IMG/VR virus record: IMGVR_UViG_3300031084_000004
Coordinates: 1-38,986 of that record
Origin: a virus
Reading direction: 5' to 3' (one strand)
Length of the DNA: 38,986 nucleotides
The notes under the pieces were generated by a model. That model saw only the letters and a program-made list of their open reading frames with translations. It was not told the DNA's origin and searched no databases. A program made the translations under genes and the position numbers. How positions within the stretch are numbered: the first letter of the stretch is position 1; the number at the start of each line of letters is the position of its first letter. This document shows, piece after piece, positions 9,948 to 37,526 of this stretch.

Positions 9948-10310
9948 ATGGGTAGTTACGCGCATGAGCGGGCTAAGACCCCGGCGCAATGGTGTGCCGA
10001 GTTCGCGTCCCGTCAAATTCCAATGTCCGAACGCGCATTGAGGTCGAAGGCCCGCGCGATCGGCGCCTACATTACGCTCGGCAAGGCGATGCTGATCACG
10101 CCTGAGCAAATTGACCATATTCTAGAGGACGGCGCATGCCACTCGAACCCTATCTCCGTGGCACGACCTGGTGGGCAAAAGGCCGTATCCAGTTCAACGG
10201 GCGCGACATCACCGACTACATCCGCGAAAGCACTGGCGCATCTACAGAAGATGGCGCGCGGCAGTGGATCGCGGAACGTCAGGCGCGCGAAGAGCGGCGG
10301 ACGGTCCTAG
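9948..10310 (+). CDS. Excisionase-like/HTH protein; the last 175 nt overlap int out of frame
   Basis: Strong RBS (GGGAGGGAGGG) before ATG 9948. The first ~62 aa look protein-like (..ALRSKARAIGAYITLGKAMLITPEQIDHILEDG). The tail beyond 10136 is low-complexity S/T/G/R. Confidence 0.45.
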   Translation: MGSYAHERAKTPAQWCAEFASRQIPMSERALRSKARAIGAYITLGKAMLITPEQIDHILEDGACHSNPISVARPGGQKAVSSSTGATSPTTSAKALAHLQKMARGSGSRNVRRAKSGGRS

Positions 10311-11254
10311 GCCATGAAGAGGCACAGGAGCGCGAGTTCACGTTCAATGATGCGGTTGTTCTGTATGCGGCAACCGAGCAAATGGCGCGCTATCTGATCC
10401 CTATCGTTGAGCGCATTGGCGCACTGCCGATCAAGAAGATCACCCCGAAGATGATCCGCGAACTCGGGCGCGACCTGTATCCTGACAATGCCGTCGACAC
10501 ATGGCGGCGCTGGGTTATCGCTCCTGCGCGGGCAGTCATCAACAATGCCAGCGAGCTAGGCCACTGCCCGCCGATCCGTATTCCAGGCTACGACAAGCAG
10601 GAGCGCGTCAAGCAGGATCGGGCGCGCGGTAAGGTCAGCCGCAAGCCGAAGGTGCCTGGTGATTGGGACTGGATCCTCGCTTTCCGCGCGAAGGCTAGCA
10701 AACGGCACGCGGCCCTAGCGCTATTTATGTTCACGACCGGCGCACGGATTGGGCAGGCCGTCGCGATGCACCCCGACAATCTCCATCTGGATGAAGGCAA
10801 GGCCGTCATCCCCGGAGCCAAGGGACACGACGATCGCACTGTCCAGCTTATGCCAGAGCTGGTCGAAGAGTTGCGCGCTTTGAGGCCTAAGGTTCCGCGT
10901 GGCTGGGATGCACGCTATCGCCGCAACCTCCGGGTCTTCGGTTTTGCCGACAAGGATGGCCCGCGCAGCGGCTGGCGGACTGCCTGCAAGCGCGCTGGTA
11001 TCCCATACTTGCCGCCCCATTCTGCCGGTCGCCATGGCTTCGGGCAGGAAATGCGCGTTCGCCAAGGCGTCGATAGCAAGTCCGTCGAAAGCGTCGGTGG
11101 CTGGTCTGCAAAGGGCGGGATGGTCGACAAGATTTACACCCATGCCGAGGACAGCGACGCCAAGATTTTGGAGGCTCTTCGTACAGGTTTCGTACAAGCC
11201 GAAAATAAGATTAGCGCCAAGGCCGCAAAAATGCTAGAAAAAGATGATGAATGA
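10136..11254 (+). CDS. int: Tyrosine integrase
   Basis: 372 aa. Contains TTGARIGQAVAM (Arg I), HSAGRHGFGQEM (H-x-x-R) and KIYTHAE (catalytic Tyr). GAGGA RBS 6 nt upstream. Confidence 0.9.
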   Translation: MPLEPYLRGTTWWAKGRIQFNGRDITDYIRESTGASTEDGARQWIAERQAREERRTVLGHEEAQEREFTFNDAVVLYAATEQMARYLIPIVERIGALPIKKITPKMIRELGRDLYPDNAVDTWRRWVIAPARAVINNASELGHCPPIRIPGYDKQERVKQDRARGKVSRKPKVPGDWDWILAFRAKASKRHAALALFMFTTGARIGQAVAMHPDNLHLDEGKAVIPGAKGHDDRTVQLMPELVEELRALRPKVPRGWDARYRRNLRVFGFADKDGPRSGWRTACKRAGIPYLPPHSAGRHGFGQEMRVRQGVDSKSVESVGGWSAKGGMVDKIYTHAEDSDAKILEALRTGFVQAENKISAKAAKMLEKDDE

Positions 11255-11257
11255 TAG

Positions 11258-11307
11258 CTGCCCTCCGAAGGCAGAGGCCACAGGTTCGAATCCTGTCGGG
11301 TGCGCCA
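11258..11307 (+). other. attP core candidate: 3' 50 nt of a tRNA-Arg(CCG), from the anticodon arm to CCA
   Basis: CTGCC-CTCCGAA-GGCAG (anticodon CCG), AGGCC, ACAGG-TTCGAAT-CCTGT (T arm), CGGGTGC-G-CCA. No D arm or 5' acceptor strand upstream, so it is a fragment. Starts 4 nt after the int stop. Confidence 0.75.
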
Positions 11308-11432
11308 CCTTTTCCGCCGTTTGTGGCGATTCGCACCAGCCTCATGCTCGTAGAACCGTGCAGGAACATGCGCGGCCAAAACCGGAACGCGCGTACAATC
11401 GCCGTACATTGCCGCCTGCGCCTCCGGGGGCT

Positions 11433-11795
11433 ATGCCTTACGAGTCGTGGAGCAAGCTTGACCACGAGGTCATCTACTTCGTCGGCGCAGAGCGCGGCCC
11501 GGTAAAGATCGGCCGCTCAATCTCCCTCGTCCGCCGCATCCGTGAATTGCAGGTGGGTCATCCGGGGTTGCTGCATGTCTGGGCCATCGTGCCGGGCAAC
11601 AATCTCGATGAGGCGATCTACCACCACCGCTTCGCCAAGGATCGCGTGTGGGGAGAGTGGTTCGCACGCTCTGACGATATGCAGGAATTTTTGGACAGCC
11701 GGGCAGTGATGCGCGGCGATCTTCGGTTGCCCGCCCCGCGCCAACGGGACGGGCTGCCACAACGCAATGGAGGTGCGTGTGACGAACGATTGTAA
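11433..11795 (+). CDS. T5orf172/MUG113 (GIY-YIG-like) domain protein
   Basis: Start MPYESW at ATG 11433. VIYFVGAERGPVKIGRSISLVRRIRELQVGHPGLLHVWAIVPGNNLDEAIYHHRFAKDRVWGEWF matches the T5orf172 pattern. The ORF-track N-terminal extension runs through the tRNA fragment. Confidence 0.65.
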   Translation: MPYESWSKLDHEVIYFVGAERGPVKIGRSISLVRRIRELQVGHPGLLHVWAIVPGNNLDEAIYHHRFAKDRVWGEWFARSDDMQEFLDSRAVMRGDLRLPAPRQRDGLPQRNGGACDERL

Positions 11796-12018
11796 CACAT
11801 TCATTGAAGGAATGAATCCCGGCTGGGTCGAGTGGACTGGTGGCGAATGCCCTGTTCCGTTCAAGACGATTGTTCAAATCAAGCTGCGTGATGGAGCAGT
11901 AGAACGACCTCGCATTGCTGGTTTTTGGATGCGGACTGACGATGACCGCTCCTATTGGCAGCACGAGCCGAACGACCACAATAACGACATTGTCGCCTAC
12001 CGTGTGGTGCACGCATGA
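11767..12018 (+). CDS. Hypothetical protein (~79-83 aa)
   Basis: Start is ambiguous: ATG 11767, or GTG 11779 with GGAGG 5 nt upstream. Overlaps the previous gene by 17-29 nt. Confidence 0.5.
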   Translation: MEVRVTNDCNTFIEGMNPGWVEWTGGECPVPFKTIVQIKLRDGAVERPRIAGFWMRTDDDRSYWQHEPNDHNNDIVAYRVVHA

Positions 12019-12410
12019 CCGACCTGACCGAGCGGCTGCGGAAGCGGGCGGATGAGGACGCCAAGTGCGCGGAGAACAGCAAGGTCGTCGCTGACCTATT
12101 GCGACCGCAGCTTGATGCGTTCGAGGCTAATGAGGATCATGGCAACATCTATGCCATCCGCATGGCTGTGGATCATCGCGATAGCGTAAAGCGCGACGGC
12201 CAATATGCCGCTGACCTTCGCGAAGCCGCCACCACCCTCGAAACCCTCACGCAGGAAAACGCGCGGCTGAGGGAGTTGTGCGATGCGGCTTGTTCAAACG
12301 CTGAAACGGCGCTGGATTTCTTGGCTAAGGCGGGACGTCCTGAACTAGCAAAAATCCAAGCCATTTATGTCGCTAACCTCCGCAAAGCCCTCGGAGGCGG
12401 CGATGAGTAA
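12015..12410 (+). CDS. Hypothetical helical protein (131 aa)
   Basis: ATGA-coupled; coiled-coil-like composition. Confidence 0.55.
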   Translation: MTDLTERLRKRADEDAKCAENSKVVADLLRPQLDAFEANEDHGNIYAIRMAVDHRDSVKRDGQYAADLREAATTLETLTQENARLRELCDAACSNAETALDFLAKAGRPELAKIQAIYVANLRKALGGGDE

Positions 12411-12651
12411 GGCGAACCAAGCTGTTGGGTATCGCCTCTACTATGAGGATGATTTAGCCGAACGCGAATGGTTCGAGCGGCAGTGGAAGATATGGCCTGA
12501 GCGCGCGCATCAAGATCGCACCACGAACGTCTCTTTCCATTACGGCGGGGTATGCGCCTTTCGCGAGATCAATGGCCGCGATCCAGCGATGAGCAAGGAT
12601 TTCGCCAGCCATGTTGCTTGGCATGATCGGCACAAGGAACCCCACCCATGA
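12403..12651 (+). CDS. Hypothetical protein (82 aa)
   Basis: ATG 12403 with GGAGG upstream. Begins MSKANQAVGYRLYYEDDLAEREWFERQWKIW. Confidence 0.5.
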   Translation: MSKANQAVGYRLYYEDDLAEREWFERQWKIWPERAHQDRTTNVSFHYGGVCAFREINGRDPAMSKDFASHVAWHDRHKEPHP

Positions 12652-13037
12652 CCAACACCGACGCGAAGATCATGCGGGAGGCGGGGCTACGGGTGCTGGT
12701 CTGCGGTGGTCGTGATTATGACGACCGCGATCATATCTGGAACACGCTGACCGCGATCCATGGCGAGTGTAAGATCAGCCTAGTCATCCATGGCGCTGCG
12801 ACCGGTGCCGATAGTGAGGGGATGCTGTGGGCCGATTGCATGCCCGGCTGCAAGCACGCTCCTTTCCGCGCCGACTGGCGGACTCATGGCAAGGCAGCTG
12901 GTCCGATCCGCAACCAACGGATGCTGGACGAGGGGAGGCCCGATCTGGTCGTCGCTTTCCCTGGCGGTCGCGGCACCGCTGATATGGTCCGCCGCGCCAA
13001 GGCCGCTGGTATAGAAGTCCGGGAGATACGCCCATGA
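12648..13037 (+). CDS. Stand-alone SLOG-fold protein (DUF2493/YspA-like)
   Basis: 129 aa. Contains VLVCGGRDYDD..., VIHGAATGADSEGMLWA, WRTHGKAAGPIRNQRML and VVAFPGGRGTADMVRRAKAAGIEV, the conserved DUF2493 blocks. Confidence 0.7.
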   Translation: MTNTDAKIMREAGLRVLVCGGRDYDDRDHIWNTLTAIHGECKISLVIHGAATGADSEGMLWADCMPGCKHAPFRADWRTHGKAAGPIRNQRMLDEGRPDLVVAFPGGRGTADMVRRAKAAGIEVREIRP

Positions 13038-13222
13038 CCGACCCCACCGAAATCGCGCGCGTCGCGAGTAATTGGTCGTTTGGGTTCGCTTCATTTGCCA
13101 GCGTGGTTGGCTCAATGTTGGCGACCCGCGCTAACTGCACCGACACCGCGAAAATCTTGGCGTTCGCCAGTATCCTATTCTTGGCCGTAGCGCTGAAAGG
13201 CATGGTCTATGGAAAGCGCTGA
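13034..13222 (+). CDS. Small membrane protein (62 aa)
   Basis: Two hydrophobic stretches (WSFGFASFASVVGSMLA; ILAFASILFLAVAL). The N-terminal TEIARVA is shared with the next ORF. Confidence 0.5.
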   Translation: MTDPTEIARVASNWSFGFASFASVVGSMLATRANCTDTAKILAFASILFLAVALKGMVYGKR

Positions 13223-13460
13223 AATCGCGCGCGTCGCGGCTGGGCTGACGGATCAGCAACGTGGTGCATTGCTCAAGGCAAGCGTTGATTGGAAGCAGAT
13301 CCACAGCCCCGGCACCGGAGCATACAAGGGCGCTAGGATGAAGCCGTTGGTCGATTATAGCGGATGGGAAGGCCAGCATGGATGGCGTCACAGTGTACGC
13401 CTTTCCGGCTTCGGTATCGCCGTCCGTGACTATATCCTCAAGGGGACTGGCCGTGGATAA
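13209..13460 (+). CDS. Hypothetical protein, paralogue A (83 aa)
   Basis: Begins MESAEIARVAAGLTDQQRGALLKA and ends GFGIAVRDYILKG. Related to the next ORF. Confidence 0.5.
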   Translation: MESAEIARVAAGLTDQQRGALLKASVDWKQIHSPGTGAYKGARMKPLVDYSGWEGQHGWRHSVRLSGFGIAVRDYILKGTGRG

Positions 13461-13689
13461 CGAAATCGCTCACATCGCCAAAGGGCTGACGTGGGCGCAA
13501 GAATACGCGCTCACTTGGCTTGGCACGACGATTGGCTGCGTGGCCAGCAACCGAAGGCTTGCCGACAGCTTGGTTTATAAGGGGTTGGCAGTTCGCACGC
13601 CCTACTCGCACAATGCGCGGATGCTTGACTGGACAAAGCGCGGCCGCGCCGTCCGCGACCACATCCTGCGGGAGAAGAGCGGTGGGTGA
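13453..13689 (+). CDS. Hypothetical protein, paralogue B (78 aa)
   Basis: GTG 13453 overlaps the upstream TAA by 8 nt. Begins VDNEIAHIAKGLTWAQEYALTWL and ends RGRAVRDHILRE, the same pattern as paralogue A. Confidence 0.45.
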   Translation: MDNEIAHIAKGLTWAQEYALTWLGTTIGCVASNRRLADSLVYKGLAVRTPYSHNARMLDWTKRGRAVRDHILREKSGG

Positions 13690-13975
13690 GAAGATTGAAG
13701 GCGTCGTAATCGTCCACTTCAATGAAGATGGCGAGATGAGTTATCACGTCTTTGGCGAGAAGGTGCGGCTGTTCATCGTAGACGAGCGGGTGCCGAATGA
13801 TCGCGTGTACGAATGGCTGAGCCGGTCAGAGCCTAGCCAGCTGCGTGAGATGATCCCGGCCGGTAGTGACATCGGCAACCAAAATGACGAACGCCACGAG
13901 GCCATCAAGCACCGCGTCTTAGCGGCTGGCGATGGGCGGTCGTACCTGTCTGTAGTGGAGAATGACCATGACTGA
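13682..13975 (+). CDS. Hypothetical protein (97 aa)
   Basis: GTG 13682 overlaps the upstream stop by 8 nt. Begins VGEKIEGVVIVHFNEDGEMSYHVFGEKVRLFIVDERV. Confidence 0.45.
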   Translation: MGEKIEGVVIVHFNEDGEMSYHVFGEKVRLFIVDERVPNDRVYEWLSRSEPSQLREMIPAGSDIGNQNDERHEAIKHRVLAAGDGRSYLSVVENDHD

Positions 13976-14258
13976 CGTGAAGGTCGAGCAGTGCGACCGA
14001 GTGGCAGCCGCTGGCACTATCCCGGACGATGGTTCGCATGTCTCGCACATGATGGTTGATGCCATCCTTAACGGTCGTGCTGATGACTGGCCCCTCGTTC
14101 TCGCCTTCGCCCGCCACCGCCAAGCAGCCGAGAAGGCGACGCGGGAGCGGGATGCGGGGATTGCTGAGGATTGGATTGATGAGGCGTTCGCGACGGACCA
14201 TGAGAACCGCATCGCTCGTTCTATCGCCACCGCCATCAGGAGCCAGAACGATGGGTAA
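13962..14258 (+). CDS. Hypothetical protein (98 aa)
   Basis: ATG 13962 or 13968; overlaps the previous gene's stop. Confidence 0.5.
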   Translation: MTMTDVKVEQCDRVAAAGTIPDDGSHVSHMMVDAILNGRADDWPLVLAFARHRQAAEKATRERDAGIAEDWIDEAFATDHENRIARSIATAIRSQNDG

Positions 14259-14688
14259 ACTGGAAGAAGCAATCATCCTCGCAACACAGGCCCACGCCGG
14301 TCAGGTCGACAAGGGCGGCGCGCCATACATCTTCCATCCGCTCCGGGTGATGATGGCGATGACCAGCGAACAGGATCGCATTGTCGCGGTGCTGCACGAT
14401 GTGGTCGAGGACAGCGATTATGAGCTGACTAACATTGCCAGCCAATTCGGCGTGGCTGTGTACGATGCTGTCGACGCGCTGACCCGGCGTGATGGCGAGA
14501 CGTACGAGGCTTTCGTCGAGCGGTGCTCCAAGAACACAACCGCCCGGCGCGTGAAGCTCGCGGATCTGGCGGATAATATGGACCTGAAACGCTTGGGCCG
14601 TGACCCCACGGCAGAGGATGCGCGCCGGTTCCACCGCTACAACAGCGCGCGGGCGTATCTGACGACATTTGGAGACGACCATGACTGA
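14251..14688 (+). CDS. HD-domain small alarmone hydrolase (RelA/SpoT-homologue hydrolase-only protein)
   Basis: ATG 14251 (AGGAG 9 nt upstream). ILATQAHAGQVDKGGAPYIFHPLRV, AVLHDVVEDS and VKLADLADNM are the H / HD / ED / (A)D..N motifs of the (p)ppGpp hydrolase domain. 145 aa, with no synthetase domain. Confidence 0.7.
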   Translation: MGKLEEAIILATQAHAGQVDKGGAPYIFHPLRVMMAMTSEQDRIVAVLHDVVEDSDYELTNIASQFGVAVYDAVDALTRRDGETYEAFVERCSKNTTARRVKLADLADNMDLKRLGRDPTAEDARRFHRYNSARAYLTTFGDDHD

Positions 14689-14860
14689 CTTGCTGACCCT
14701 GACCCGCTTCGCGATCGGCCGGGCGCTGGTTCATGCTGGTCTATCCGTGATGCCAGCCGGTCGCGTGCGATCCGAGCTTTCCCAGCTTTACGAGGTCTGG
14801 GCTACTCGCGCTCGGGACCGTGCCATCAAGCCTTACCCTCACCCCCTGGATATGGAGTGA
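14681..14860 (+). CDS. Hypothetical protein (59 aa)
   Basis: ATG 14681 with GGAG upstream; overlaps the hydrolase stop by 8 nt. Confidence 0.45.
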   Translation: MTDLLTLTRFAIGRALVHAGLSVMPAGRVRSELSQLYEVWATRARDRAIKPYPHPLDME

Positions 14861-15249
14861 CCATGACTGACTTGCTGGAACTCGCTGCCAGGGTCGAGGG
14901 GCTGACCGGGCCGGATCGGGAGGTGGATGCGCTGGTATGGCTGCATCTGCCCGAGCAGGCTGGCCATGCGTGGAAGCACGATGGAAACAAGAAGGCACAC
15001 GCCCGCCAAATTGCTGGTGTGCCCTTCGTCCCCGTGTATACGGCTTCGGTCGACCATGCCCTCAAGCTGGTGCCGAATGGTGCGTGGGCAGAGGGTTCGC
15101 TTGGATCGCACGTTGATCGGCGTTCATCGCTGGAGATCCATAAGCCCTGCACATATGATCCCATCGGGCGCGCTACCGCAGCCACCCCAGCCCTAGCTCT
15201 AGTCTCCGCCTGTCTCCGCGCCCGCGCGCATGGGGGAGGGGAGGGGTGA
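14857..15249 (+). CDS. Hypothetical protein (128-130 aa)
   Basis: GTG 14857 (GTGA overlap) or ATG 14863. Begins MTDLLELAARVEGLTGPDREVDALVW. Confidence 0.55.
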   Translation: MTMTDLLELAARVEGLTGPDREVDALVWLHLPEQAGHAWKHDGNKKAHARQIAGVPFVPVYTASVDHALKLVPNGAWAEGSLGSHVDRRSSLEIHKPCTYDPIGRATAATPALALVSACLRARAHGGGEG

Positions 15250-15371
15250 TGCACATTTTCCACCGCTGGTCGAAATGGCGAGACGTGGCGACAGGTGAAA
15301 GCGGCCACGTCCTCCAAGAAAAACGCTGCGCCATCTGCGGAAAGGCAATCAGAGAATGGAGCTGGAAGTGA
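15249..15371 (+). CDS. Small zinc-ribbon-like protein (40 aa, DUF1660-like)
   Basis: Own translation, below the track cutoff: MHIFHRWSKWRDVATGESGHVLQEKRCAICGKAIREWSWK. TGATG overlap with the upstream stop. Confidence 0.45.
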   Translation: MHIFHRWSKWRDVATGESGHVLQEKRCAICGKAIREWSWK

Positions 15372-15703
15372 CCGATAACCCGCTGGTCGAGGCTGTGGCG
15401 CGGGCTGTCGCTGCGTCGGAATGGGAGGCAGGCTATGGCCTAGAAAAGCTGCTATACCGGACAAAAAATGAGGCAGCCGATGCGGCATGGCCTGACTTCT
15501 GTGGTCAAGCCCTCGCCGCCCTCCGCGCGATCGAGGACGCGGGGTGGAAGGTGGTGCCGGTTGAGGCAACGCCGGAAATGGAGATTGCAGCGACCGAGGA
15601 TTGGATGACGATCAGAGCTGCCGAGGATAGGGCAGTAGCAATCTGGTCCGCTATGCTGGCTGCCGCTCCTACCTTTACGAAGGTAGATGACTCTGCTAGA
15701 TAA
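15368..15703 (+). CDS. Hypothetical protein (111 aa)
   Basis: GTG 15368 (GTGA overlap, GGAG 8 nt upstream); ATG 15356 is the alternative. Last gene before the terminator. Confidence 0.5.
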   Translation: MTDNPLVEAVARAVAASEWEAGYGLEKLLYRTKNEAADAAWPDFCGQALAALRAIEDAGWKVVPVEATPEMEIAATEDWMTIRAAEDRAVAIWSAMLAAAPTFTKVDDSAR

Positions 15704-15734
15704 TTGCTGTCAAGACGCAACCTTGGCTGTACTG

Positions 15735-15774
15735 AAACCGCTCGGCAATCCAGACTGTCGGGCGGTTTTTCTTT
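15735..15774 (+). terminator. Rho-independent terminator of the rightward accessory operon
   Basis: AAACCGCTCGGCA-loop-TGTCGGGCGGTTT stem (about 10 bp with 2 mismatches) followed by TTTTTCTTT. Confidence 0.7.
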
Positions 15775-16279
15775 GCATATTGAGGGTGACAACGTAGCGC
15801 CACCCTCCTAGCCCGATGCCGAAGCAGAGCGGGGACCTGAAACTGGAGCGGAGGCGGGGAGTTGCACCCTGCCGTTTCTGTATGGTCGCAGGCCTAGGAA
15901 CCGCTCCCACCATATCCCCGCAATCTCGGGTCCGCATAGGTGCCGGTCTTTCCCGGCTGTCAGGTTTCACAGCAGCACTGGATCGCCTCAGCCGCAAGCT
16001 ATGTCCCAGCCCTTGCGAGGGGCCAAAAAGAGATGAACCACCGTCCATCCCATCCCTCCGCATATCGAAGAGGGGAAGTATGCTGCACCGACCCCTTAGC
16101 ACACCGTTGGCTTAGCTACTTGGTCAGTCGGTCGCCAGTGCAACCCAGCCACTTTACACGACTCGGTCAGAAATGCTAGCGGGGATGCGTCGCTGAAGAG
16201 CGCGGTTTTTGATCGAACCAAGGGCTGCCCGGCTCTCCAACACCTAGGGTCTGGAAGATGGTCCAGACAGTCGGGCAGT

Positions 16280-16453
16280 TCACTCCACCCGCAAATTCAA
16301 CCGCCGCTCCACCTCATCCTGCGCCGCCTGCCGCAGAGCATCGACGGCTACTTGCTTGGTCAGCGGATTCTTGTCCGACGCCACAGCTTTGCCAATCGCG
16401 CGGACGGCGATCTTGAGTGCAAAATTCGCGATTGCGCCGATCGGGAGTTTCAT
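16280..16453 (-). CDS. Small amphipathic protein (57 aa), last gene of the late/lysis operon
   Basis: Own translation: MKLPIGAIANFALKIAVRAIGKAVASDKNPLTKQVAVDALRQAAQDEVERRLNLRVE. ATGA overlap with the upstream stop. Confidence 0.45.
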   Translation of the reverse strand: MKLPIGAIANFALKIAVRAIGKAVASDKNPLTKQVAVDALRQAAQDEVERRLNLRVE

Positions 16454-16701
16454 GGGGTGGTTTCCTTTGGTGCGGATGCTGCGAGCTGATCGGTGAGAGC
16501 GCCGGTCCGCTCGTCAGTCCATGCGGCGCGGATGGTCGTCACGATGTCTTTCGAGAATACCAGCAGACCGCCCGCGATCGTTCCCAAGAGCGTCTGGCTG
16601 TCGCTCGGGATACGGGACGAAATTGCGCCCCATGAGATGCCGCCCAGGATCAGCAGGGCTAGGGCAGCGAGGCCGAATAGAGCGGCGCGGTCGCGGTTCA
16701 T
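16450..16701 (-). CDS. Two-TM membrane protein (83 aa), holin/antiholin or spanin-type lysis accessory candidate
   Basis: Hydrophobic segments AALFGLAALALLILGGISWGAI and LLGTIAGGLLVFS. Directly downstream of the endolysin. Confidence 0.45.
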   Translation of the reverse strand: MNRDRAALFGLAALALLILGGISWGAISSRIPSDSQTLLGTIAGGLLVFSKDIVTTIRAAWTDERTGALTDQLAASAPKETTP

Positions 16702-17288
16702 GCTGCCATCTCCCCCGTCTTACCTTGGAGCCACGTCAGGAATTGCGCCACGGTTTTTCCACGCAGGATCGACGGGTTAGCTTGGGTCGCGGCATCACCC
16801 GCCAGCAAGTCAGCTCGCGCACCCTTGTCTGCACCGATCACTTTCGCGGCGGTCTGCGGCCCGAAGAAATGGGCGGCGTAGAGCGATGCTTTGTTGATCG
16901 GAATGCCTTGGCGCGCGAGATAGGCTGCATTCTTCTCAGTGAAGGTCAGAGCGCGTGCCGTCTGCTCCTCCGGCGTCGGCTTCAACCCACCGAACGCCTG
17001 CGATGCGTCTACACCCCATTTGCCGCCCTCGCCAAGCCATGTCGACTTGATGAACTGGTACAGGCCTGAGGCGCTGGATGTCGGCGCTTTGACATACGGA
17101 CGATTGCCGCTCTCGATCTTCGCTAGCATAGGCCAATAATCGTCGGGGATTTTCGGCTGAGCATCCATTCTCTGCATCTCAAAGCTGTCCGCCAGCGCGT
17201 CAATGACCTGCACATGGCTGGCGAGAAATTTGCGGTCAGGCGCGAATGGCCGGATCGCGTCGAACAGGGCGGTGCGGCGGTCGGTCAT
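16698..17288 (-). CDS. Endolysin, SLT/lytic-transglycosylase-like
   Basis: ATG 17288 (ATGA overlap). MLAKIESGNRPYVKAPTSSASGLYQFIKSTW fits the catalytic E-S ... GLxQ motif of SLT-type muramidases. Confidence 0.7.
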   Translation of the reverse strand: MTDRRTALFDAIRPFAPDRKFLASHVQVIDALADSFEMQRMDAQPKIPDDYWPMLAKIESGNRPYVKAPTSSASGLYQFIKSTWLGEGGKWGVDASQAFGGLKPTPEEQTARALTFTEKNAAYLARQGIPINKASLYAAHFFGPQTAAKVIGADKGARADLLAGDAATQANPSILRGKTVAQFLTWLQGKTGEMAA

Positions 17289-17719
17289 TCTCCTACTCCT
17301 GCAATGCGGTCTAGCGATGCGACGGCCGCTGCGACCAGTGGGCTGGCAGGCTGACCATCGACCCGGATGGCGCTGACCTGCACTTGGATGAGTTGCTTCT
17401 TGAGGCTGTCGATCGTCGCCTGTTGCTCTTGCACGCATACGTTCAGACGCTGGACCTCAGCCTGCATCTTCTCTTGTCCCTCCATGCAGGCCTCATGCCT
17501 CGCATCAGCAGCAGCGATCTCGCGCGTGAAGCGGGCCGTCGCGTCCTCAAGAAGCTGGCCCATCCGCTCCTCGACCTTGGACTGACGATTGGCGAGCGCT
17601 TCAAGCACGGCAGGCAAGCCCTTCCACCAGCCAATGAGGCTGATGGCGACCAGCACCCAAATGCCAGCACCACCGGGCGTCCAACCCTTGGAAATGAAGG
17701 GGAGTAATTCCTCCATCAC
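17285..17719 (-). CDS. N-terminal TM plus coiled-coil protein (144 aa), i-spanin-like or holin-associated
   Basis: TM segment GAGIWVLVAISLIGWW followed by a long heptad-like helix (QSKVEERMGQLLEDATARFTREIAAADARHEACMEGQEKMQAEVQRLN). Confidence 0.45.
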   Translation of the reverse strand: MMEELLPFISKGWTPGGAGIWVLVAISLIGWWKGLPAVLEALANRQSKVEERMGQLLEDATARFTREIAAADARHEACMEGQEKMQAEVQRLNVCVQEQQATIDSLKKQLIQVQVSAIRVDGQPASPLVAAAVASLDRIAGVGE

Positions 17720-18238
17720 TTACGGCCGCGTTTTTCCAAATGCTGCGCCAGACGGACGCAGAAGATAGCGGCAAACGCCATAAAGATGAGTGATCCTAAG
17801 CCAGACACCCGGTCCTCCCAAAGCATAGATGCAGGCCAGTTGCGCGAGGAACGTCAGGTCCAGCGCGCGGTTATAGACGCCCCATTCGATCAGCCCGAAA
17901 TCGCGGACGGTGTGGAAGCATTGCTGAATCGCCAGCAGTGAGAAGATTGACCAGCCCCACCAGAAACGGCGGAAAGACCAGTTCAGCCGCCATCCGCTGA
18001 CCAGCACAAAGGCCCCCAGCAGCGCATCGGTAATCGACCACAGGTGCTCGCTCTCCAGCGGCAACCCGATCGACCATAGTATCGATGCAGGGGGCCAAGG
18101 CGACCAGGCAAGAAGATAGAGCGCCCATGCGCCAGCAATAGCCGTCATGATGCTGGCGGCGGCCCTGCGGTGCTTGGGATGAGCGTGCAGGGCGAAGACA
18201 TAAGCCAGCGCCACCAGCGTCATGAACAGCCAGCGCAT
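17720..18238 (-). CDS. Polytopic membrane protein (172 aa, 4-5 TM)
   Basis: ATG 18238. Several Trp-rich hydrophobic helices. Function is open: large holin, or superinfection exclusion. Confidence 0.5.
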   Translation of the reverse strand: MRWLFMTLVALAYVFALHAHPKHRRAAASIMTAIAGAWALYLLAWSPWPPASILWSIGLPLESEHLWSITDALLGAFVLVSGWRLNWSFRRFWWGWSIFSLLAIQQCFHTVRDFGLIEWGVYNRALDLTFLAQLACIYALGGPGVWLRITHLYGVCRYLLRPSGAAFGKTRP

Positions 18239-18239
18239 A

Positions 18240-18434
18240 TTACGGCAGCTTAGGCTTCGGGGGCGGGGTATCACCGCCACCGCCACCACTCAGCGGCTGC
18301 ACGATCGCGTCGTCGTCGCCCGCGTCCAGCACGCCGTCACGGCATTCGTCCCGGAATCGCTCGCGCTTCGCCTCGTCCGTCTCGGTGGCGATTTGCTCCG
18401 CCAGATGCTGGCAGTGTTGCGGGTGGTCCATCAA
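18240..18434 (-). CDS. Hypothetical acidic protein (64 aa)
   Basis: ORF-track ORF. Acidic core and a GGGGGDTPPPKPKLP tail. Confidence 0.4.
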   Translation of the reverse strand: MMDHPQHCQHLAEQIATETDEAKRERFRDECRDGVLDAGDDDAIVQPLSGGGGGDTPPPKPKLP

Positions 18435-18652
18435 TTATCTCCTGCCGGGATAGCGCCCAGCTCCGCATTGATGCGCGCAATGTCCTCGCGCGCTGATATC
18501 ACGCTCCCCATGATCCTGTTGAGGTGAGCGATAATAAAAACTACGTGCTTCTGGCCCTCAGGTGAGGCTTTCACTAGATCTGATATCATAGATTTCGCGA
18601 GACTGTCGATGTCATCCAGTCCAGCGGTTGTTTTTCCGTAGTCGTAGCTCAT
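18431..18652 (-). CDS. Hypothetical protein (73 aa) immediately downstream of the tailspike, low GC
   Basis: ATG 18652 with GAGGAA RBS. The local sequence is visibly AT-richer (e.g. gataataaaaactacg). Confidence 0.5.
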   Translation of the reverse strand: MSYDYGKTTAGLDDIDSLAKSMISDLVKASPEGQKHVVFIIAHLNRIMGSVISAREDIARINAELGAIPAGDN

Positions 18653-18659
18653 AAATTCC

Positions 18660-20597
18660 TCATGTTGACTTGACGACATTGATGACCTGCCAGTTGCTGT
18701 ACAGGTCAAGCCATTTTATTGTAAAGCTGTCACGTGGGTTGAGAAGCAGTTCGCCGTTGATGTACAGATTGCCGCCACTCGCAAGGCGATAGTAGCTTCC
18801 GGTGTGTACGACTAGCGTAACCTCGGAGCCAGGCCCTTGCTGGCCAGTAAAGTTATTTATGCTTTGACGATTGTTAGCGTCGGAGCCACCCTGAATTGCA
18901 GCTGTCGAAAGCCCGCGCAGATCAATACTGAAGCCGGATGGTGACAGTACCACCATAGTGTTCGACGAAACGCCGGTCAGATTGATAGCCGTTCGGTCTG
19001 GAGAAATCTGCTTGAAGGCGTTGGGCATCGCTCCGCCCAACGTCACATAGGACCGATCGCAATAGCCTTCGATCAGGTTGTTGCCCGTCATCAGGCTCGA
19101 TGCCGTGATCATTCGGCAGATAGCGCCCTGACCAGCACTGGTCGCCGAGCCCGCCGCATTCCGCAACTCATTGTTAGTGAACGTGAGAGTCGCAGCTTCC
19201 TGATAGTCGACGCACCGAATGCAATTCTCAAAGTCGCTTTTGTCGATTACCAGCGCGCCGCGATCGAGAAGGACAGCACCGTCCGAGCCCTGCATGGTCG
19301 CGGTTAGGTGAATGGCATAGGGCTGGTTACCGTTGACTGGCGATGCACCAGCCTCATTTTCTGCGGCGCAGATCGGCTCGCCATTGCTCTTACGCCATTC
19401 GCGGCTGACGCAGACATTGTAGCCCGACATGATAGAAGCGCCCGACGATCCGCTGTCAAACTCGCAGGCGTCGCTAAACGTAATCTGTCCAACCTTGCCG
19501 GTGATTGCCCAGCATAGCGACGACGCCGTGGGCCGGAAAAGCTGGGTTCCGCGAAAACTGATGAATTGGTTCACGGCATCATTGTTTGAGTCGGAGCGGC
19601 CACGAAGCCAGATGCCCATACGACCGAAGCCGTAGCCGATGATGTTCTCCATCTCGCCATACCAAGCCCCAGCAGCAGACGTGCCATCAGGGTGGCGCGC
19701 ATAGAAATAGAAGCCAATCTCTCCGGCCCCGCCGTGCCCGAAAACTTGGAAGTTTCGGTTTGCCCAACCCTGAACGACGCCATCCGGGATGGTGAACATC
19801 GGCGCAGTGGAACCGGGATAGTGCGAGATCGCGCTATTGGCCTTGTTCGAGCCGACAAGCTCCAGCGCGTTCGCCATCTCAAAATTCGAAATGCTCACCC
19901 AGCCGGGAGGCCATGCAAGTGGCCGGTTGAGAGCCAGGGCAGCGGCTTTCGCTTGGTCAACTGCCATTTTCTGGTCGCCAGCCGCTTCAGCAGCAGCGCG
20001 CGACGGATACCCGACGACACCATAGCGCTCCATATAGACCGGGTAGCGACGAAGGTCCTGGTCAAGCGACTTGTCGGTGCCGCCCGAAGGAGCAGAAAAC
20101 GCCACCTGTGACACACCCTGCCGCACCAGTGCGCCGGTCGTCAGCGGCACGGCGTCAAGCCTAATAACGTTCACGCCATCAGCCGTGTAGGGCGCGCCTG
20201 CGGTCTGGTACAGGAACGTGCCCGCAGCCGTGCCGCCATCACTGCCGCTCGGGGGGGCGAAGATGTAGCTGGCGTTCGATACCGAGGCGGCTTTCAGTCC
20301 CGCTAGCGTCGTGTAGGTGCTGTTTGCGGGGCCGGTGGGGCCTTCTGGGCCGGTCGCCAGCCCGTCAACGTTACGCAGCCAGCGTCCTACCTGACCCGGT
20401 GTCTTGTCATATGGCCGCAGAACATCCTTGCCGTCATCAGCCTCTACCGAACCAGGATCATACTCGAACAGGCCTTCAAGACCGTTGACGAGGAACAACG
20501 CGCCAAGCGGAAGAAGCGTCGATGGCACTGAGCGTAGATCGTTCGCAGTTTTCACCTGCGCCAGATTGCCAGGAAAGGTTACATTGACAGCAGCCAC
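18660..20597 (-). CDS. Tailspike / receptor-binding protein with beta-helix (depolymerase-like) body
   Basis: 645 aa. The N-terminal ~100 aa carry a short GPEGPTGP collagen-like element. The remainder is Gly/Ser/Asn/Thr-rich with repetitive beta-strand-like segments typical of pectate-lyase-fold tailspikes. Sits at the end of the virion module. Confidence 0.65.
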   Translation of the reverse strand: MAAVNVTFPGNLAQVKTANDLRSVPSTLLPLGALFLVNGLEGLFEYDPGSVEADDGKDVLRPYDKTPGQVGRWLRNVDGLATGPEGPTGPANSTYTTLAGLKAASVSNASYIFAPPSGSDGGTAAGTFLYQTAGAPYTADGVNVIRLDAVPLTTGALVRQGVSQVAFSAPSGGTDKSLDQDLRRYPVYMERYGVVGYPSRAAAEAAGDQKMAVDQAKAAALALNRPLAWPPGWVSISNFEMANALELVGSNKANSAISHYPGSTAPMFTIPDGVVQGWANRNFQVFGHGGAGEIGFYFYARHPDGTSAAGAWYGEMENIIGYGFGRMGIWLRGRSDSNNDAVNQFISFRGTQLFRPTASSLCWAITGKVGQITFSDACEFDSGSSGASIMSGYNVCVSREWRKSNGEPICAAENEAGASPVNGNQPYAIHLTATMQGSDGAVLLDRGALVIDKSDFENCIRCVDYQEAATLTFTNNELRNAAGSATSAGQGAICRMITASSLMTGNNLIEGYCDRSYVTLGGAMPNAFKQISPDRTAINLTGVSSNTMVVLSPSGFSIDLRGLSTAAIQGGSDANNRQSINNFTGQQGPGSEVTLVVHTGSYYRLASGGNLYINGELLLNPRDSFTIKWLDLYSNWQVINVVKST

Positions 20598-20760
20598 CGC
20601 CGGCCCCCTGAAAAAGCATAGGTCAGGAGCTATTTTAGGCGATTGGCTGCTGTGCTATAGCAACGTCATGTCCAACTCTCTACACATCGCGATCGTATCT
20701 GCGCTCAGTGTCGCTTTTACGACCAGCATCCGGGCTTCGCGACCTTGGCGAAGGCGCAAA

Positions 20761-22416
20761 CTATCGAAGCTGATCTACAGCTGCGGGCGCTGCTATGGGC
20801 GCTGCCGCCGCACCATATTCAAGCAGGCGGCCAAGGCCCGGTGACACCGCCCGCTGCCGTGTGAGGACGGGCACTGCTACTTGCGCGCCTGCATAAAATG
20901 GCGCCTGAGCAAGGCCCATGAGGTTTGCAGTTAAGCTGGCCGCCTGCTGGCGGTCACTGGTCCCGCTATTCGCAGTTCGGCTGGGCAAAACCGCCGATGC
21001 CGGATCCGAAAGGTCCTGATTGAGAGCTTCCCCGCGGGCATACCCACGGTTACGCACGGTATCACTGCTGCGCTTGACTGCCTGCGAGTAACCATTGGGG
21101 CTGATCTCACCGCGGCTATTCAGCGATGCGCGCTCTGCCTGCACCAGTGATTTATAGCCTTGATTGATGGCGCGAAGTTGTGCAGCTTCTGCCGGGTTCT
21201 GGCGAGCCGCTGCCTCGCGCAATGCCTGCTGCACCTCCCCGAGCAAGTCGCCTAGATCCTGAGTATCCGCATCAGAACTTGTCGTATAGCGACGGATGCG
21301 CTGGCCAAGCCGTTCTTCGACCCGCTTCAACGCCTGCCCGTCAAGCGTCGTGTTACCGCCCCAAAAACGGTTCAGGTCTTCTAGGATGCGATTGAACTGA
21401 TCAGCGCGGCCGGGTGCTAGGGTTTGAGCCTCAGCATGGATCGCGCCAAGATCGGTGAGAAACTGCTGGTCACCTTGGACAGTCAGGTTGGGCAGTAGGG
21501 CATCATAAGCCGCGCTGATCCGATCTCCCGCGTACCGGATGGCTTGACGCCCGCTGCGAACATTCTGTGGCAGAGACAGGCCGATCGGCTCCAAGGAGCG
21601 ATTGACCGCTGCGCGTCCGAAATCGTCCAGAGATCGGGCGCGGGCGCCGTCAATCATGGAGCCGACGAACGGCGTGCTGGCAGCGCGTTCTTCGGTACGG
21701 GCTGCGATCTGGCCAAGACGGCTACCCGATGCCTGACCTAGCTGGCCTGGCGTTACGCGAATCCCTGCGTCGAGTAGCGCGCGAATATCGTTAGGCACAT
21801 TCGGGGCGGCAATACGCGATCCAGCGCGAAGAAGGCCACTAAGCACACCGCCTGCTGCCCCTCCAATTGCTGCATCTTGTGCGACCTCACCGACGCTGTT
21901 CCCATTGCTGAGCAGCGCACCACCTGCTGCGCCTTGGACCAAAGCACCGCCCCGCAATGCTGCTAGTGGCGAAGATGCCACCGCCTCCCCGACAAAACGC
22001 CCTGCGCCACGCGTAAGGCCATAGCCCTCGCGCGCGGGAGCAAAGTTGTCGACGAGTTTACCTTGACCGCTCAGCGCGTCACCCCAATTAGAACCGGCAA
22101 GCGTCTGACCGGCCTTGTTCAACCCGCTTTGCAGCCAGCCGGCAGCGCGATCGAGGACGTTGGCACCGCCCTCTGCAACGCCTGTCGCAAGTTCCTTAAA
22201 GCCAGTGCCAACATCACTCAGCAACTCGCTTTCAGGATCGTTTACGGCCTGCTGCATGGAAGCTTGTTCAGGCGCTTTGACTTGAACATTGCCACCTGCG
22301 AACTCCTGCGGTAGATTTCTGCGCGCAAGTTCGACGATTTGGTCCTGTGACAGATCGTCAGGGCCTTCGATCTCGTAGACCTTGCCATCTGGCTGTTCGA
22401 TGCGGAATTTTGCCAT
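20761..22416 (-). CDS. Internal virion (ejection) protein, large
   Basis: 551 aa from ATG 22416 (GTG 22419 is the alternative). Gly/Ala-rich hydrophobic N-terminal third and a helical remainder. Position is equivalent to podovirus ejection proteins. Confidence 0.5.
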   Translation of the reverse strand: MAKFRIEQPDGKVYEIEGPDDLSQDQIVELARRNLPQEFAGGNVQVKAPEQASMQQAVNDPESELLSDVGTGFKELATGVAEGGANVLDRAAGWLQSGLNKAGQTLAGSNWGDALSGQGKLVDNFAPAREGYGLTRGAGRFVGEAVASSPLAALRGGALVQGAAGGALLSNGNSVGEVAQDAAIGGAAGGVLSGLLRAGSRIAAPNVPNDIRALLDAGIRVTPGQLGQASGSRLGQIAARTEERAASTPFVGSMIDGARARSLDDFGRAAVNRSLEPIGLSLPQNVRSGRQAIRYAGDRISAAYDALLPNLTVQGDQQFLTDLGAIHAEAQTLAPGRADQFNRILEDLNRFWGGNTTLDGQALKRVEERLGQRIRRYTTSSDADTQDLGDLLGEVQQALREAAARQNPAEAAQLRAINQGYKSLVQAERASLNSRGEISPNGYSQAVKRSSDTVRNRGYARGEALNQDLSDPASAVLPSRTANSGTSDRQQAASLTANLMGLAQAPFYAGAQVAVPVLTRQRAVSPGLGRLLEYGAAAAPIAAPAAVDQLR

Positions 22417-24125
22417 CACTGCACCCGCGTAATTTTGAGGCCGCCGCGATTGGCGGTCTGCCCTACGCCTAGCCGGCCTTGGTTCTCTGGCGCCTTGCGG
22501 TCGTAGGGATTGGGCTTGACGCGCGGGACGCTAGATGATCCGGGACCCGCCGCTGTACGGAGCGCCTTCAACGCCGCTTCACGCTGGCGTCGCTTGTCAG
22601 CCTGCACCTCTGGTCCATCACCTGGTTCAGGGAACAGCACACGCGCCTTTTGCGCCGCCTCTTCTTGGCTAATTACAGCGCCCGACTCTTGGCGCAGGAT
22701 CGCGGTCGCAAATGCAAGCTGGGCAGACAGGACGCGGCGATCGACCTGCGAAAGATTTTGCCGAACCGGGTTACCCGCGCTCAAGTCGCTGAGAGCAGCA
22801 GTCAACAAGGTGGGCTTATATCCGCTCACCTGGTTCAGCGTGTTCTGCGCCTCCACAGCGGAGCCGAGATAGCCGACAGCCTTTGCCTGTCCCTCGGTAA
22901 GACTGCCCGCTTTTGAACCGAGCGTCGTAATCTGCCCCTTGGGACCGATCTGGAATTGCGCGGCAGGATCTAGTCCCTGCGCCCGCTTCTCGTCAGGCGT
23001 CATGAGGCGGTAGCCCTGCTTGGGAGGCCGCACATTGATGACGCCCGGCTGACTCTGCTGAGCTTGCGCCTGCTCCCCACCGACCGGCAGCCCTTCGACC
23101 ATCGTCTGGATCGTATTCTGACCGCGCGCCCGGTTGCGCCGGACCTGTGCCGCCGCAGCCCGCAGACCTTCGGACTTGCTCCCAAAGGTACGATAGTCGC
23201 CAGTACGCGGATCTCGCAGATTGCCCGGGTTATTGTTGCGATCCGCGATTGAGCCGCGTCCACCTTCCGACAGAGTGAGTGCCTGAGCGATTTGCAAATC
23301 CGTCATGCCAGGCGGAAACGGCGCGGTCGGGTCGATGCCAAGCGCACGCGATATGCCAGAAATCTTGCCGTCGACCGCCGCATCAGAGTTATCGCCACCG
23401 TTTCGCGCGCGAGGTGTCCAGCCGTATTGCGTGCGACCGCCTGACGGTGGCGGCGCAGCCGAGCGACCGGTTGCACCCCCAGCTGTGCCAGTACCTGGCT
23501 TTTGCAGCCAGTTTCCGCCCTCACTGTCAAACACCCATTCCGGCGCCTTCTGGTTCTCGTAAAGCACCTTGCCTGTGCCGTCGACAAGCGCGCCGCCATC
23601 ACCGACGACACGCGCTTCCTGCTGCTTCAAGCGCGCAGCGAGGGCGGCTTTCCCCGCTTCCGACAAAGCATAAGCACCATCAAGCCCCGCATCTGTCCAG
23701 TCGACGGACGCGAGCTCCTGATCGCTGAAGCCCGCCTGTTTGAGTAGGGGAAGGGCTGCCTGTGCGCGCTGTTCGACAGGAATGGCTTTCAGCGTTGGAT
23801 GAAGGCGGCCAATTACGTCGAATTCGCGGTTGAGCTGTGCAAGCTGATCCTGTCGCAGGCTGCCGAGCGCGTTGGCGAAGTCGAAGTCACCACCTAGAGC
23901 TGCCTCTTGCCGCGCACCCGCAAAATCACCGCCACGCGCGCGGTTAGCCAGCTGGATCCGTGCCGCGTCCTGCTGTTGCCCTTTGCCGAATTCGTACGCC
24001 TGCTGATCCGCGCGCTGCTGCGCCAGCTTGATCTGCTGCTGTTGCGCCTGCGCATTGCCGATCTGCTGGAGGCTGTCGAGATAGTTGTACTGATTGCGAC
24101 CAGCCAGGCCCCACTCGACTGTCAT
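22416..24125 (-). CDS. Internal virion (ejection) protein with a central ADRNNNPGNL domain
   Basis: 569 aa. Gln-rich coiled N-terminus and a central TLSEGGRGSIADRNNNPGNLRDPRTGDYRTFGS block. TGATG coupling to its neighbours. Confidence 0.5.
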   Translation of the reverse strand: MTVEWGLAGRNQYNYLDSLQQIGNAQAQQQQIKLAQQRADQQAYEFGKGQQQDAARIQLANRARGGDFAGARQEAALGGDFDFANALGSLRQDQLAQLNREFDVIGRLHPTLKAIPVEQRAQAALPLLKQAGFSDQELASVDWTDAGLDGAYALSEAGKAALAARLKQQEARVVGDGGALVDGTGKVLYENQKAPEWVFDSEGGNWLQKPGTGTAGGATGRSAAPPPSGGRTQYGWTPRARNGGDNSDAAVDGKISGISRALGIDPTAPFPPGMTDLQIAQALTLSEGGRGSIADRNNNPGNLRDPRTGDYRTFGSKSEGLRAAAAQVRRNRARGQNTIQTMVEGLPVGGEQAQAQQSQPGVINVRPPKQGYRLMTPDEKRAQGLDPAAQFQIGPKGQITTLGSKAGSLTEGQAKAVGYLGSAVEAQNTLNQVSGYKPTLLTAALSDLSAGNPVRQNLSQVDRRVLSAQLAFATAILRQESGAVISQEEAAQKARVLFPEPGDGPEVQADKRRQREAALKALRTAAGPGSSSVPRVKPNPYDRKAPENQGRLGVGQTANRGGLKITRVQ

Positions 24126-37280: not shown

Positions 37281-37298
37281 TTCTCTTTCTCCCTAAAT

Positions 37299-37328
37299 CC
37301 GGCCCGCCGCCATGAGAGGCGGGGCCGG
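37299..37328. other. Strong GC hairpin (10 bp plus bulge) between the iterons and ssb
   Basis: CCGGCCCGCC-9 nt-GGCGGGGCCGG. It is followed (plus-strand direction) by the tandem TAGTAC-G-TAGTAC element at 37330..37342. Confidence 0.45.
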
Positions 37329-37372
37329 GTAGTACGTAGTACTAGGTGTCTCCGCTCCGCAGATTTGCAGGC

Positions 37373-37526
37373 TACTTCCGCAAGCAATTTCAACGACTTG
37401 GCGTTTACCTCCGCTTGCTTCCGCAGTACTTCCGCAAATGTACTTCCGCAGTACTTCCGCAAGCAATTTCAATGGGTTAGCGGCAATGGTGCGGAAGTAA
37501 CCCATCACCGACCACCTACTTCCGCA
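37373..37526. repeat. Iteron cluster, putative origin of replication: TACTTCCGCA x5 direct, one variant, one inverted
   Basis: Direct copies at 37373, 37427, 37441, 37452 and 37517. Variant TGCTTCCGCA at 37416. Inverted copy TGCGGAAGTA at 37490..37499. Two copies extend to a 21-bp exact repeat, TACTTCCGCAAGCAATTTCAA (37373..37393 and 37452..37472). Confidence 0.7.

Follow-up and report, generated by a model that had tools for sequence, protein, structure and literature searches.

The aph-like gene and the family of its product

The stretch of DNA analysed here, IMG/VR virus record IMGVR_UViG_3300031084_000004 (38,986 nucleotides; hereafter the window), carries on its plus strand a gene whose product is a hydrolase-only RelA/SpoT homologue (RSH protein), or small alarmone hydrolase (SAH), and specifically a member of the Aph1 family. 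We refer to it as the aph-like gene. The founding protein, Aph1 (BACCAC_01146; PDB 7SMG), is from a temperate phage of Bacteroides caccae and was described by Ahmad et al. (PNAS 2023; PMC10083569). The open reading frame (ORF) of the aph-like gene starts with ATG and comprises 145 codons and a stop. Its translation contains all three motifs on which an initial annotation, made from the DNA letters, had based a hydrolase-only RSH assignment: HPLRV (residues 29-33), LHDVVEDS (48-55) and KLADLADNM (102-110). The gene and its features are as follows.

14251..14688, plus strand: the aph-like gene, stop codon included, encoding a 145-residue, single-domain Aph1-family protein, predicted to be an adenosine 3'-pyrophosphohydrolase
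14238..14242, plus strand: Shine-Dalgarno-like AGGAG, read from the sequence, 8 nucleotides 5' of the ATG and within the end of the upstream ORF
14251..14511, plus strand: N-terminal HD core (residues 1-87), placed by Pfam HD_4, TIGR00691 and residue mapping to Aph1; it holds D20 (Aph1 D24, specificity), H29 (H33), H49-D50 (the HD motif, H53-D54) and E53-D54 (the ED motif)
14503..14685, plus strand: C-terminal Aph-specific region (residues 85-145), placed by its matching only 7SMG, by signature mapping and by conservation; it holds R91 (Aph1 R96), D105 (D110, metal ligand), N109 (N114), D111 (D116), R114 (R119), R129 (K133) and Y130 (Y134)
14677..14695, plus strand: overlap of the stop codon with the start of the next gene (GACCATGACTGACTTGCTG); the segment is a gene-junction repeat that occurs three times in the operon

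The gene is translationally coupled inside a tightly packed plus-strand operon, as indicated by stop/start overlaps at both ends together with the upstream AGGAG. The TAA of the upstream ORF (14256-14258) overlaps the start of the aph-like gene at the ATG at 14251 (ATGGGTAA), and the aph-like stop codon overlaps the ATG of the following gene (ATGACTGA). Homologues are 138 to 167 residues long (median 145) and their alignments begin at residue 1-4; the ATG at 14251 is therefore favoured over an in-frame TTG at 14056. The longer ORF from that TTG and an antisense ORF of 148 residues (14236-14682) were both rejected as mechanical ORFs of GC-rich sequence. The aph-like gene is a real frame under purifying selection: in a comparison with a relative on another phage contig (76% identity), dN/dS was 0.165, and 58 of the 97 nucleotide differences lay in third codon positions.

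Profile searches matched residues 7-87 to Pfam HD_4 (PF13328) at 33.9 bits, above the gathering threshold of 27.2, and the only other Pfam match fell below its threshold. TIGR00691 was matched in its N-terminal part alone, PHROG 990 ('metal-dependent phosphohydrolase') was matched with an E-value of 1e-42, and PADLOC gave no match for the gene. No synthetase, TGS or ACT region was detected in the 145-residue protein by profile searches. It is thus a single domain, as anticipated by the initial annotation, which had seen an HD domain and nothing else.

A sequence search of the PDB returned as best match 7SMG, the (p)ppApp hydrolase Aph1 (E = 8e-30, residues 4-140 against 8-144). The hydrolase domains of Rel/SpoT, together with MESH1, RelH and PaSAH, were matched at E-values of 1e-12 to 0.02, mostly over the N-terminal half. 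When the HD-free C-terminal 61 residues (85-145) were searched alone, only 7SMG (residues 90-144) was retrieved across the PDB, with E = 3e-6. This search mirrors the query with which Ahmad et al. drew the limits of the family, namely the HD-free C-terminal 53 residues of Aph1, Y90-E143 (PMC10083569), and so supports membership of the Aph1 family.

Alignment with Aph1 revealed that the metal ligands are all kept, Aph1 H33, H53-D54 and D110 corresponding to H29, H49-D50 and D105, and that the ribose-contacting asparagine N114 is matched by N109. The catalytic histidine and aspartate residues, whose misalignment had been named at the outset as grounds for abandoning the RSH assignment, align exactly with those of Aph1. 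Metal-ligand and HD-core residues are invariant in 107 homologues. Furthermore, five of the six residues of the Aph1 signature (D24/R96/D116/R119/K133/Y134) are identical in the aph-like protein (D20/R91/D111/R114/R129/Y130), the sole change being lysine to arginine at the K133 position. Among the 107 closest homologues this position is lysine in 74 and arginine in 31, the other signature and catalytic positions being invariant or nearly so; D20 and R114 are invariant throughout. Arginine also occupies the K133 position in 18/41 viral and 24/81 genomic homologues.

An AlphaFold2 model built from the 107-sequence alignment (pLDDT 95.5, pTM 0.90) was compared with known structures using Foldseek. 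The model superposes on 7SMG with a template-modelling (TM) score of 0.92 (query) or 0.94 (target) and a root-mean-square deviation (rmsd) of 1.1 Å over 139 columns. The next-best structures (MESH1, PaSAH, RelH, Rel and SpoT) gave TM scores of 0.66-0.80 with rmsd of 3 Å or more, and TM scores normalised to the target were 0.56-0.66 for the larger SAHs. The model displays the compact eight-helix fold of Aph1, without the helix 0 and C-terminal helix 9 of other SAH/Rel hydrolases. All 37 PDB matches at E<=0.001 were RSH-type hydrolases; none was a dNTPase or generic HD enzyme. The hydrolase-only RSH identity is thus supported by sequence, profile and structure alike, 7SMG being the best match.

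A generic HD phosphohydrolase (a dNTPase or nucleotidase) unrelated to alarmones had been put forward from the start as the outcome that would undo this identity, and phage databases indeed label the family merely 'metal-dependent phosphohydrolase'. However, every significant match, in sequence and in structure, is an RSH hydrolase, with no SAMHD1/dGTPase-type or YfbR-type HD enzyme among them. At the level of homology this reading is refuted, and we regard it as exceedingly improbable.

Predicted substrate

Aph1 hydrolyses pApp, ppApp and pppApp, with undetectable activity on ppGpp, and all 12 of the homologues tested hydrolyse ppApp, two of them also having modest ppGpp activity (PMC10083569). 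An Aph1 D24R/R119A variant gains ppGpp hydrolysis, which identifies both positions as determinants of adenosine specificity (PMC10083569). Because the equivalent D20 and R114 are kept in the aph-like protein, as in all 107 close homologues, it is predicted to be an adenosine 3'-pyrophosphohydrolase, and its signature favours (p)ppApp rather than (p)ppGpp as substrate. The same preference characterises SAHMex, a (p)ppApp-specific SAH from an alphaproteobacterium (Methylobacterium extorquens). SAHMex, however, belongs to a MESH1-like family of its own, whose signature differs (F21, D98, D99 and others), turns over about 30-fold more slowly and is not retrieved by Aph1-based searches (PMC10083569).

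Alternatively, the protein might hydrolyse (p)ppGpp, so that the phage lowers host ppGpp, blunts the stringent response and keeps transcription and translation going. Membership of the RSH hydrolase superfamily (HD_4 and the N-terminal part of TIGR00691) would accommodate such an activity, databases name homologues guanosine-3',5'-bis(diphosphate) 3'-pyrophosphohydrolase, and modest ppGpp hydrolysis was seen in the two assayed Aph homologues mentioned above. Additionally, degradation of ppGpp as well as ppApp is reported for ATfaRel, a SAH assigned to the PbcSpo subfamily by Jimmy et al. Conversely, D20 and R114 occupy precisely the positions that need mutation before Aph1 accepts ppGpp, and D-K-G stands in place of the residues with which Rel contacts guanine (R43/R44/S45 in TtRel). 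The likeness to true ppGpp hydrolases is also far weaker and lies mostly in the N-terminal half. A (p)ppGpp hydrolase therefore seems to us improbable. Of the two roles proposed in the initial annotation, blunting of the stringent response is the less likely because the specificity residues (D20, R114) favour (p)ppApp over (p)ppGpp, and the neutralisation of toxic pyrophosphokinases or defences is the favoured, better supported one.

A different 3'-phosphorylated adenosine compound could also be the substrate. NADPH, on which metazoan MESH1 acts, is one example; others could be pAp/PAPS or a 3'-modified signalling nucleotide used by a defence system. In structure, MESH1 ranks next after Aph1, and complexes of it with NADPH and with PAPS have been solved; substrate promiscuity has been described for RSH hydrolases (PMC9765508; bioRxiv 10.1101/2021.04.30.441581), and most orphan Aph homologues are without an assigned physiological role (PMC10083569). 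Nevertheless, every assayed member of the Aph1 family hydrolyses ppApp efficiently (PMC10083569), and the aph-like protein retains the complete family signature but for the lysine-to-arginine exchange. The TM score to MESH1 (about 0.78) is clearly lower than that to Aph1 (0.92), and an extra helix is present in MESH1. We consider a non-alarmone substrate quite improbable.

Genomic context and proposed role

The window ends in an exact 127-nucleotide direct repeat (1-127 is identical to 38860-38986) of the kind typical of circular assembly; it is therefore a complete circular phage genome of ~38.86 kb (about 38,859 bp), neither a fragment nor a prophage with host flanks. The minus strand encodes a P22-type portal, large terminase, major capsid protein, single-stranded DNA-binding protein (SSB) and a Toprim/AAA_25 primase-helicase. 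An early block on the plus strand encodes a helix-turn-helix regulator, a PDDEXK exonuclease paired with a RecT-like protein, a C5 cytosine methylase, a tyrosine integrase, a MUG113/T5orf172 protein and a SLOG (YAcAr) protein. This gene content, with a tyrosine integrase in the early block, marks the phage as temperate. The terminal repeat and the portal, terminase, capsid, SSB, primase-helicase and integrase genes uphold the earlier description of the hydrolase as phage-encoded.

The aph-like gene sits in the early/accessory operon and not in the head-morphogenesis module. Pfam searches detected neither RelA_SpoT nor MuF in any substantial ORF, and covered essentially every ORF of at least 100 residues and the small neighbours. 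The Apk domain of a pneumococcal MuF toxin, used as a single-sequence phmmer probe, had no match among the ORFs of the genome, and a three-sequence Apk profile had none among its stop-to-stop ORFs at E<=10. The portal is of the plain P22 type without toxin fusion. No neighbour, the SLOG gene included, co-occurs with homologues in 37 IMG/VR viral loci. PHROGs and Pfam assigned no function to eight small neighbouring ORFs, and PADLOC gave no match for nine neighbours. Even among three related sphingomonad phages the flanking small ORFs are unrelated, and the upstream ORF looks similar to those of the two related phages only in its ~10 final codons, where it overlaps the ribosome-binding region. 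The aph-like gene is an orphan without a cognate toxin and travels alone. This agrees with the reported linkage of MuF to fewer than 1% of Aph homologues, a context that does not define the family (PMC10083569).

The small upstream ORF was considered as a conserved partner or Tis1-like immunity protein and was rejected, being unrelated both to the pneumococcal small ORF and to the upstream ORFs of related phages.

Aph1 itself came to light in a MuF-Apk2/Tis1 setting, and the enzyme might accordingly be the immunity component of a phage-borne (p)ppApp synthetase toxin (a MuF-Apk2/Tis1/Aph1 cassette), protecting the producer from its own toxin. The layout recurs in pneumococcal prophages, where a MuF protein of 527 residues is followed by a 69-residue ORF and the HD protein, and in the IMG/VR loci L018 and L003. 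Against this, the genome studied here is complete and contains no MuF, RelA_SpoT or Apk-like domain, its portal is of the plain P22 type, the gene lies in the early operon, and the small upstream ORF bears no relation to the pneumococcal one. Neither an adjacent toxin nor a Tis1-like gene accompanies the hydrolase, and the toxic small alarmone synthetase (toxSAS) standing beside the SAH in a toxSAS module is absent from the genome. The lack of a toxin gene largely refutes immunity to an own toxin, which we judge very improbable.

Apk-like synthetase domains directly 5' of a homologue were observed in three other loci: Streptococcus phage IPP64 (L041; 2213-4417), L018 (6060-7811) and L003 (6111-6986). 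The domain is fused to MuF in IPP64 and L018, and L003 gave no MuF N-terminal match; in IPP64 a 69-residue ORF lies between the two genes.

Comparison with Aph1 bears out both kinship and a difference of setting. The two proteins share ~41% identity over their full length (145 against 149 residues), the same metal ligands and compact fold, and phage origin. Aph1, however, is encoded directly 3' of the MuF-Apk2 toxin and the Tis1 immunity gene in a head module, whereas the aph-like gene is an orphan of an early/accessory operon. The proteins differ further at K133 of Aph1, which is arginine here. Aph1 is a homotetramer.

We consider it likely that the aph-like protein is a metal-dependent Aph1-family adenosine 3'-pyrophosphohydrolase that acts as an orphan detoxifier against RSH-type pyrophosphokinase toxins produced by others, since the phage itself encodes no (p)ppApp synthetase. 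By analogy with Aph1, H29, H49, D50 and D105 would hold a metal ion (Mg2+ or Mn2+), and water activated by this ion would cleave off the 3'-pyrophosphate. D20 and R114, with D111, R129 and Y130, would form a pocket that admits adenine and excludes guanine. The enzyme would convert pApp, ppApp and pppApp to AMP, ADP and ATP plus pyrophosphate. Expressed with the early and accessory genes, it may shield the infected cell or lysogen, and hence the phage, from foreign pyrophosphokinase toxins. The targets would be (p)ppApp synthetases, namely Tas1/Apk1-like effectors of the type VI secretion system (T6SS), MuF-Apk of rival phages and FaRel-type toxSAS. Possible further targets are toxSAS/CapRel defences that add pyrophosphate at the tRNA CCA end, the product likewise being an adenosine 3'-pyrophosphate.

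Precedents exist for several of these steps. The standalone SAHs of Salmonella phages PVP-SE1 (PbcSpo) and SSU5 (PaSpo) neutralised 5/5 toxSAS tested, namely FaRel, FaRel2, PhRel, PhRel2 and CapRel (PMC7229694). The SAHs ATfaRel and MESH1 strip the 3'-pyrophosphate that toxSAS add at tRNA CCA ends (bioRxiv 10.1101/2021.04.30.441581), and CapRel is a bona fide anti-phage system (PMC9712102). A toxSAS-modified tRNA presents an adenosine 3'-pyrophosphate with a 5'-phosphodiester, chemically near the Aph1 substrate pApp; this closeness makes tRNA repair by Aph1-type enzymes plausible.

The tested phage enzymes differ in their distance from the aph-like protein. A search of the PVP-SE1 genome returned a sole match, gp220, a full-length homologue (39-40% identity, E = 1e-19) carrying D24, D116, R119, K133 and Y134. 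Since gp220 is the only match there and carries signature residues, the 'PbcSpo' phage SAH that was tested appears to be an Aph1-type enzyme. Like the aph-like protein, it is standalone, orphan and phage-encoded; it differs in belonging to a lytic 146-kb myovirus, in adjoining thymidylate kinase, in its annotated length of 169 residues (with a longer N-terminus) and in having glycine at the R96 position. ATfaRel of C. marina, likened here by description, is also a single-domain RSH hydrolase that degrades a toxin product and restores aminoacylation of pyrophosphorylated tRNA. It adjoins its FaRel toxin, however, and its reported activity covers both ppGpp and ppApp. A further group of HD-fold RSH hydrolases comprises PaSAH/PaSpo (P. 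aeruginosa SAH 6YVC and the PaSpo of phage SSU5), MESH1 and RelH, of which some are phage-borne (SSU5) and some neutralise toxSAS. These are distant (PaSAH E = 0.005; TM about 0.77, rmsd >4 Å), dimeric, active on (p)ppGpp and larger, at about 175-200 residues with an extra C-terminal helix.

Several points weigh against the proposed substrate and role. The specificity of the aph-like protein is predicted from its signature, and 2/12 of the assayed family members hydrolysed some ppGpp as well (PMC10083569). The identity of gp220 with the PVP-SE1 SAH tested by Jimmy et al. (PMC7229694) is one that we infer. The majority of cellular Aph homologues have no toxin link (PMC10083569), and no report was found, in the literature searched, of a phage SAH serving as counter-defence during actual infection.

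If the prediction is correct, the phage carries a ready-made antidote to adenosine-pyrophosphorylating toxins, which serve interbacterial warfare (T6SS Tas1), rival prophages (MuF-Apk) and toxSAS/CapRel anti-phage immunity. More tentatively, orphan Aph1-type hydrolases of phages at large could constitute a widespread counter-defence, removing pyrophosphate from A76 of tRNA against CapRel/toxSAS through their adenine-specific pocket and also degrading (p)ppApp from FaRel-type or T6SS toxins; this extension is conceivable, though we are inclined to doubt it. Were it true, phage and lysogen would escape abortive infection and interbacterial killing, and the 389 GenBank phage records that contain a homologue would represent a widespread anti-defence family not annotated as such. 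The Aph1 family, its structure, specificity code and association with phages, and the neutralisation of toxSAS by phage SAHs, are already published (PMC10083569, PMC7229694); the present gene adds a data point rather than a concept.

Distribution, host and further features of the genome

Database searches yielded 7061 homologues at E<1e-5. The alignment covers at least 80% in 260 of the GenBank phage records counted above, and the homologue-bearing phages include those of Aeromonas, Pseudomonas, Vibrio, Klebsiella, Salmonella, Cronobacter and Streptococcus. In species-representative genomes of many phyla, a relative is encoded in at least 505 stretches. The triad D24, R119 and Y134 is present in 77/81 genomic and 30/41 viral homologues examined; the most distant viral homologues, with arginine or alanine at the D24 position, may be guanosine-type enzymes. 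Public records use unspecific or incorrect names ('HD domain-containing protein', 'metal-dependent phosphohydrolase', 'GTP pyrophosphokinase'). Many RefSeq/UniRef homologues of 140-145 residues (P0057, P0079, P0100, P0119 and others) carry the name 'GTP pyrophosphokinase' while lacking a synthetase domain. The Aph1 signature permits more specific names and the correction of a systematic misannotation.

No close sequenced relative of the phage was found when positions 12000-24000 of the window were compared with GenBank phages by megablast. A Logan contig (L001) shares 85% amino acid identity across the lysis-side genes and has a hydrolase of 76% identity at the same operon position. A prophage-like region of Sphingomonas beigongshangi likewise has a hydrolase homologue, 65% identical, at this position; the phage and this region have in common a MUG113-like protein, the hydrolase, the ORF at 14857 and part of a tail protein. 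The closest named hydrolase homologues are from Sphingomonas (65-69%) and Porphyrobacter (53%), and the GC content of the genome is ~61%. Our best guess for the host is a sphingomonad.

A scan of the genome for tRNA genes found none. A promoter and terminator scan gave nothing beyond shuffle expectation within the operon, terminator-like hairpins being seen only past 15850.

The gene-junction repeat, GACCATGACTGAC(T/G)TG, occurs at 13964-13982, 14677-14695 and 14859-14877, each copy spanning a stop/start overlap, and the three successive genes at these junctions begin MTD. The first two copies, which lie within a 44-nucleotide repeat of 70% identity, flank a two-gene unit made up of the ORF at 13962 and the hydrolase. 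The repeats could be sites of module exchange by short homology, or no more than a translational coupling signal that has been conserved.

Upstream in the same operon, at a distance of 1.2 kb, lies a gene (12648-13037, plus strand) for a YspA/cpYpsA-related SLOG protein (YAcAr PF10686, E = 1e-18; PHROG 289). SLOG domains are predicted binders of nucleotide ligands. Two ORFs on the plus strand, 13209-13460 and 13378-13689, appear to be tandem paralogues, the motifs EIA..A.GLT..Q..AL and G.AVRD.IL being present in both; neither had a Pfam, PHROG or PADLOC match. An exact 18-nucleotide repeat (GAAATCGCGCGCGTCGCG) is found at 13049 and 13221. The tyrosine integrase gene (10136-11254, plus strand) lies in the middle of the early operon and overlaps the gene for the MUG113/T5orf172-domain protein (11244-11795, plus strand).

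Finally, the intergenic region 37281-37504, between the primase-helicase and SSB genes, contains a cluster of the direct repeat TACTTCCGCA(A/G) in about five copies, of which two lie inside longer 31-nucleotide repeats. The repeat is also found there in inverted form (TGCGGAAGTA), and a GC-rich hairpin lies at ~37300-37330. The repeats look like iterons, and the region is a candidate replication origin.

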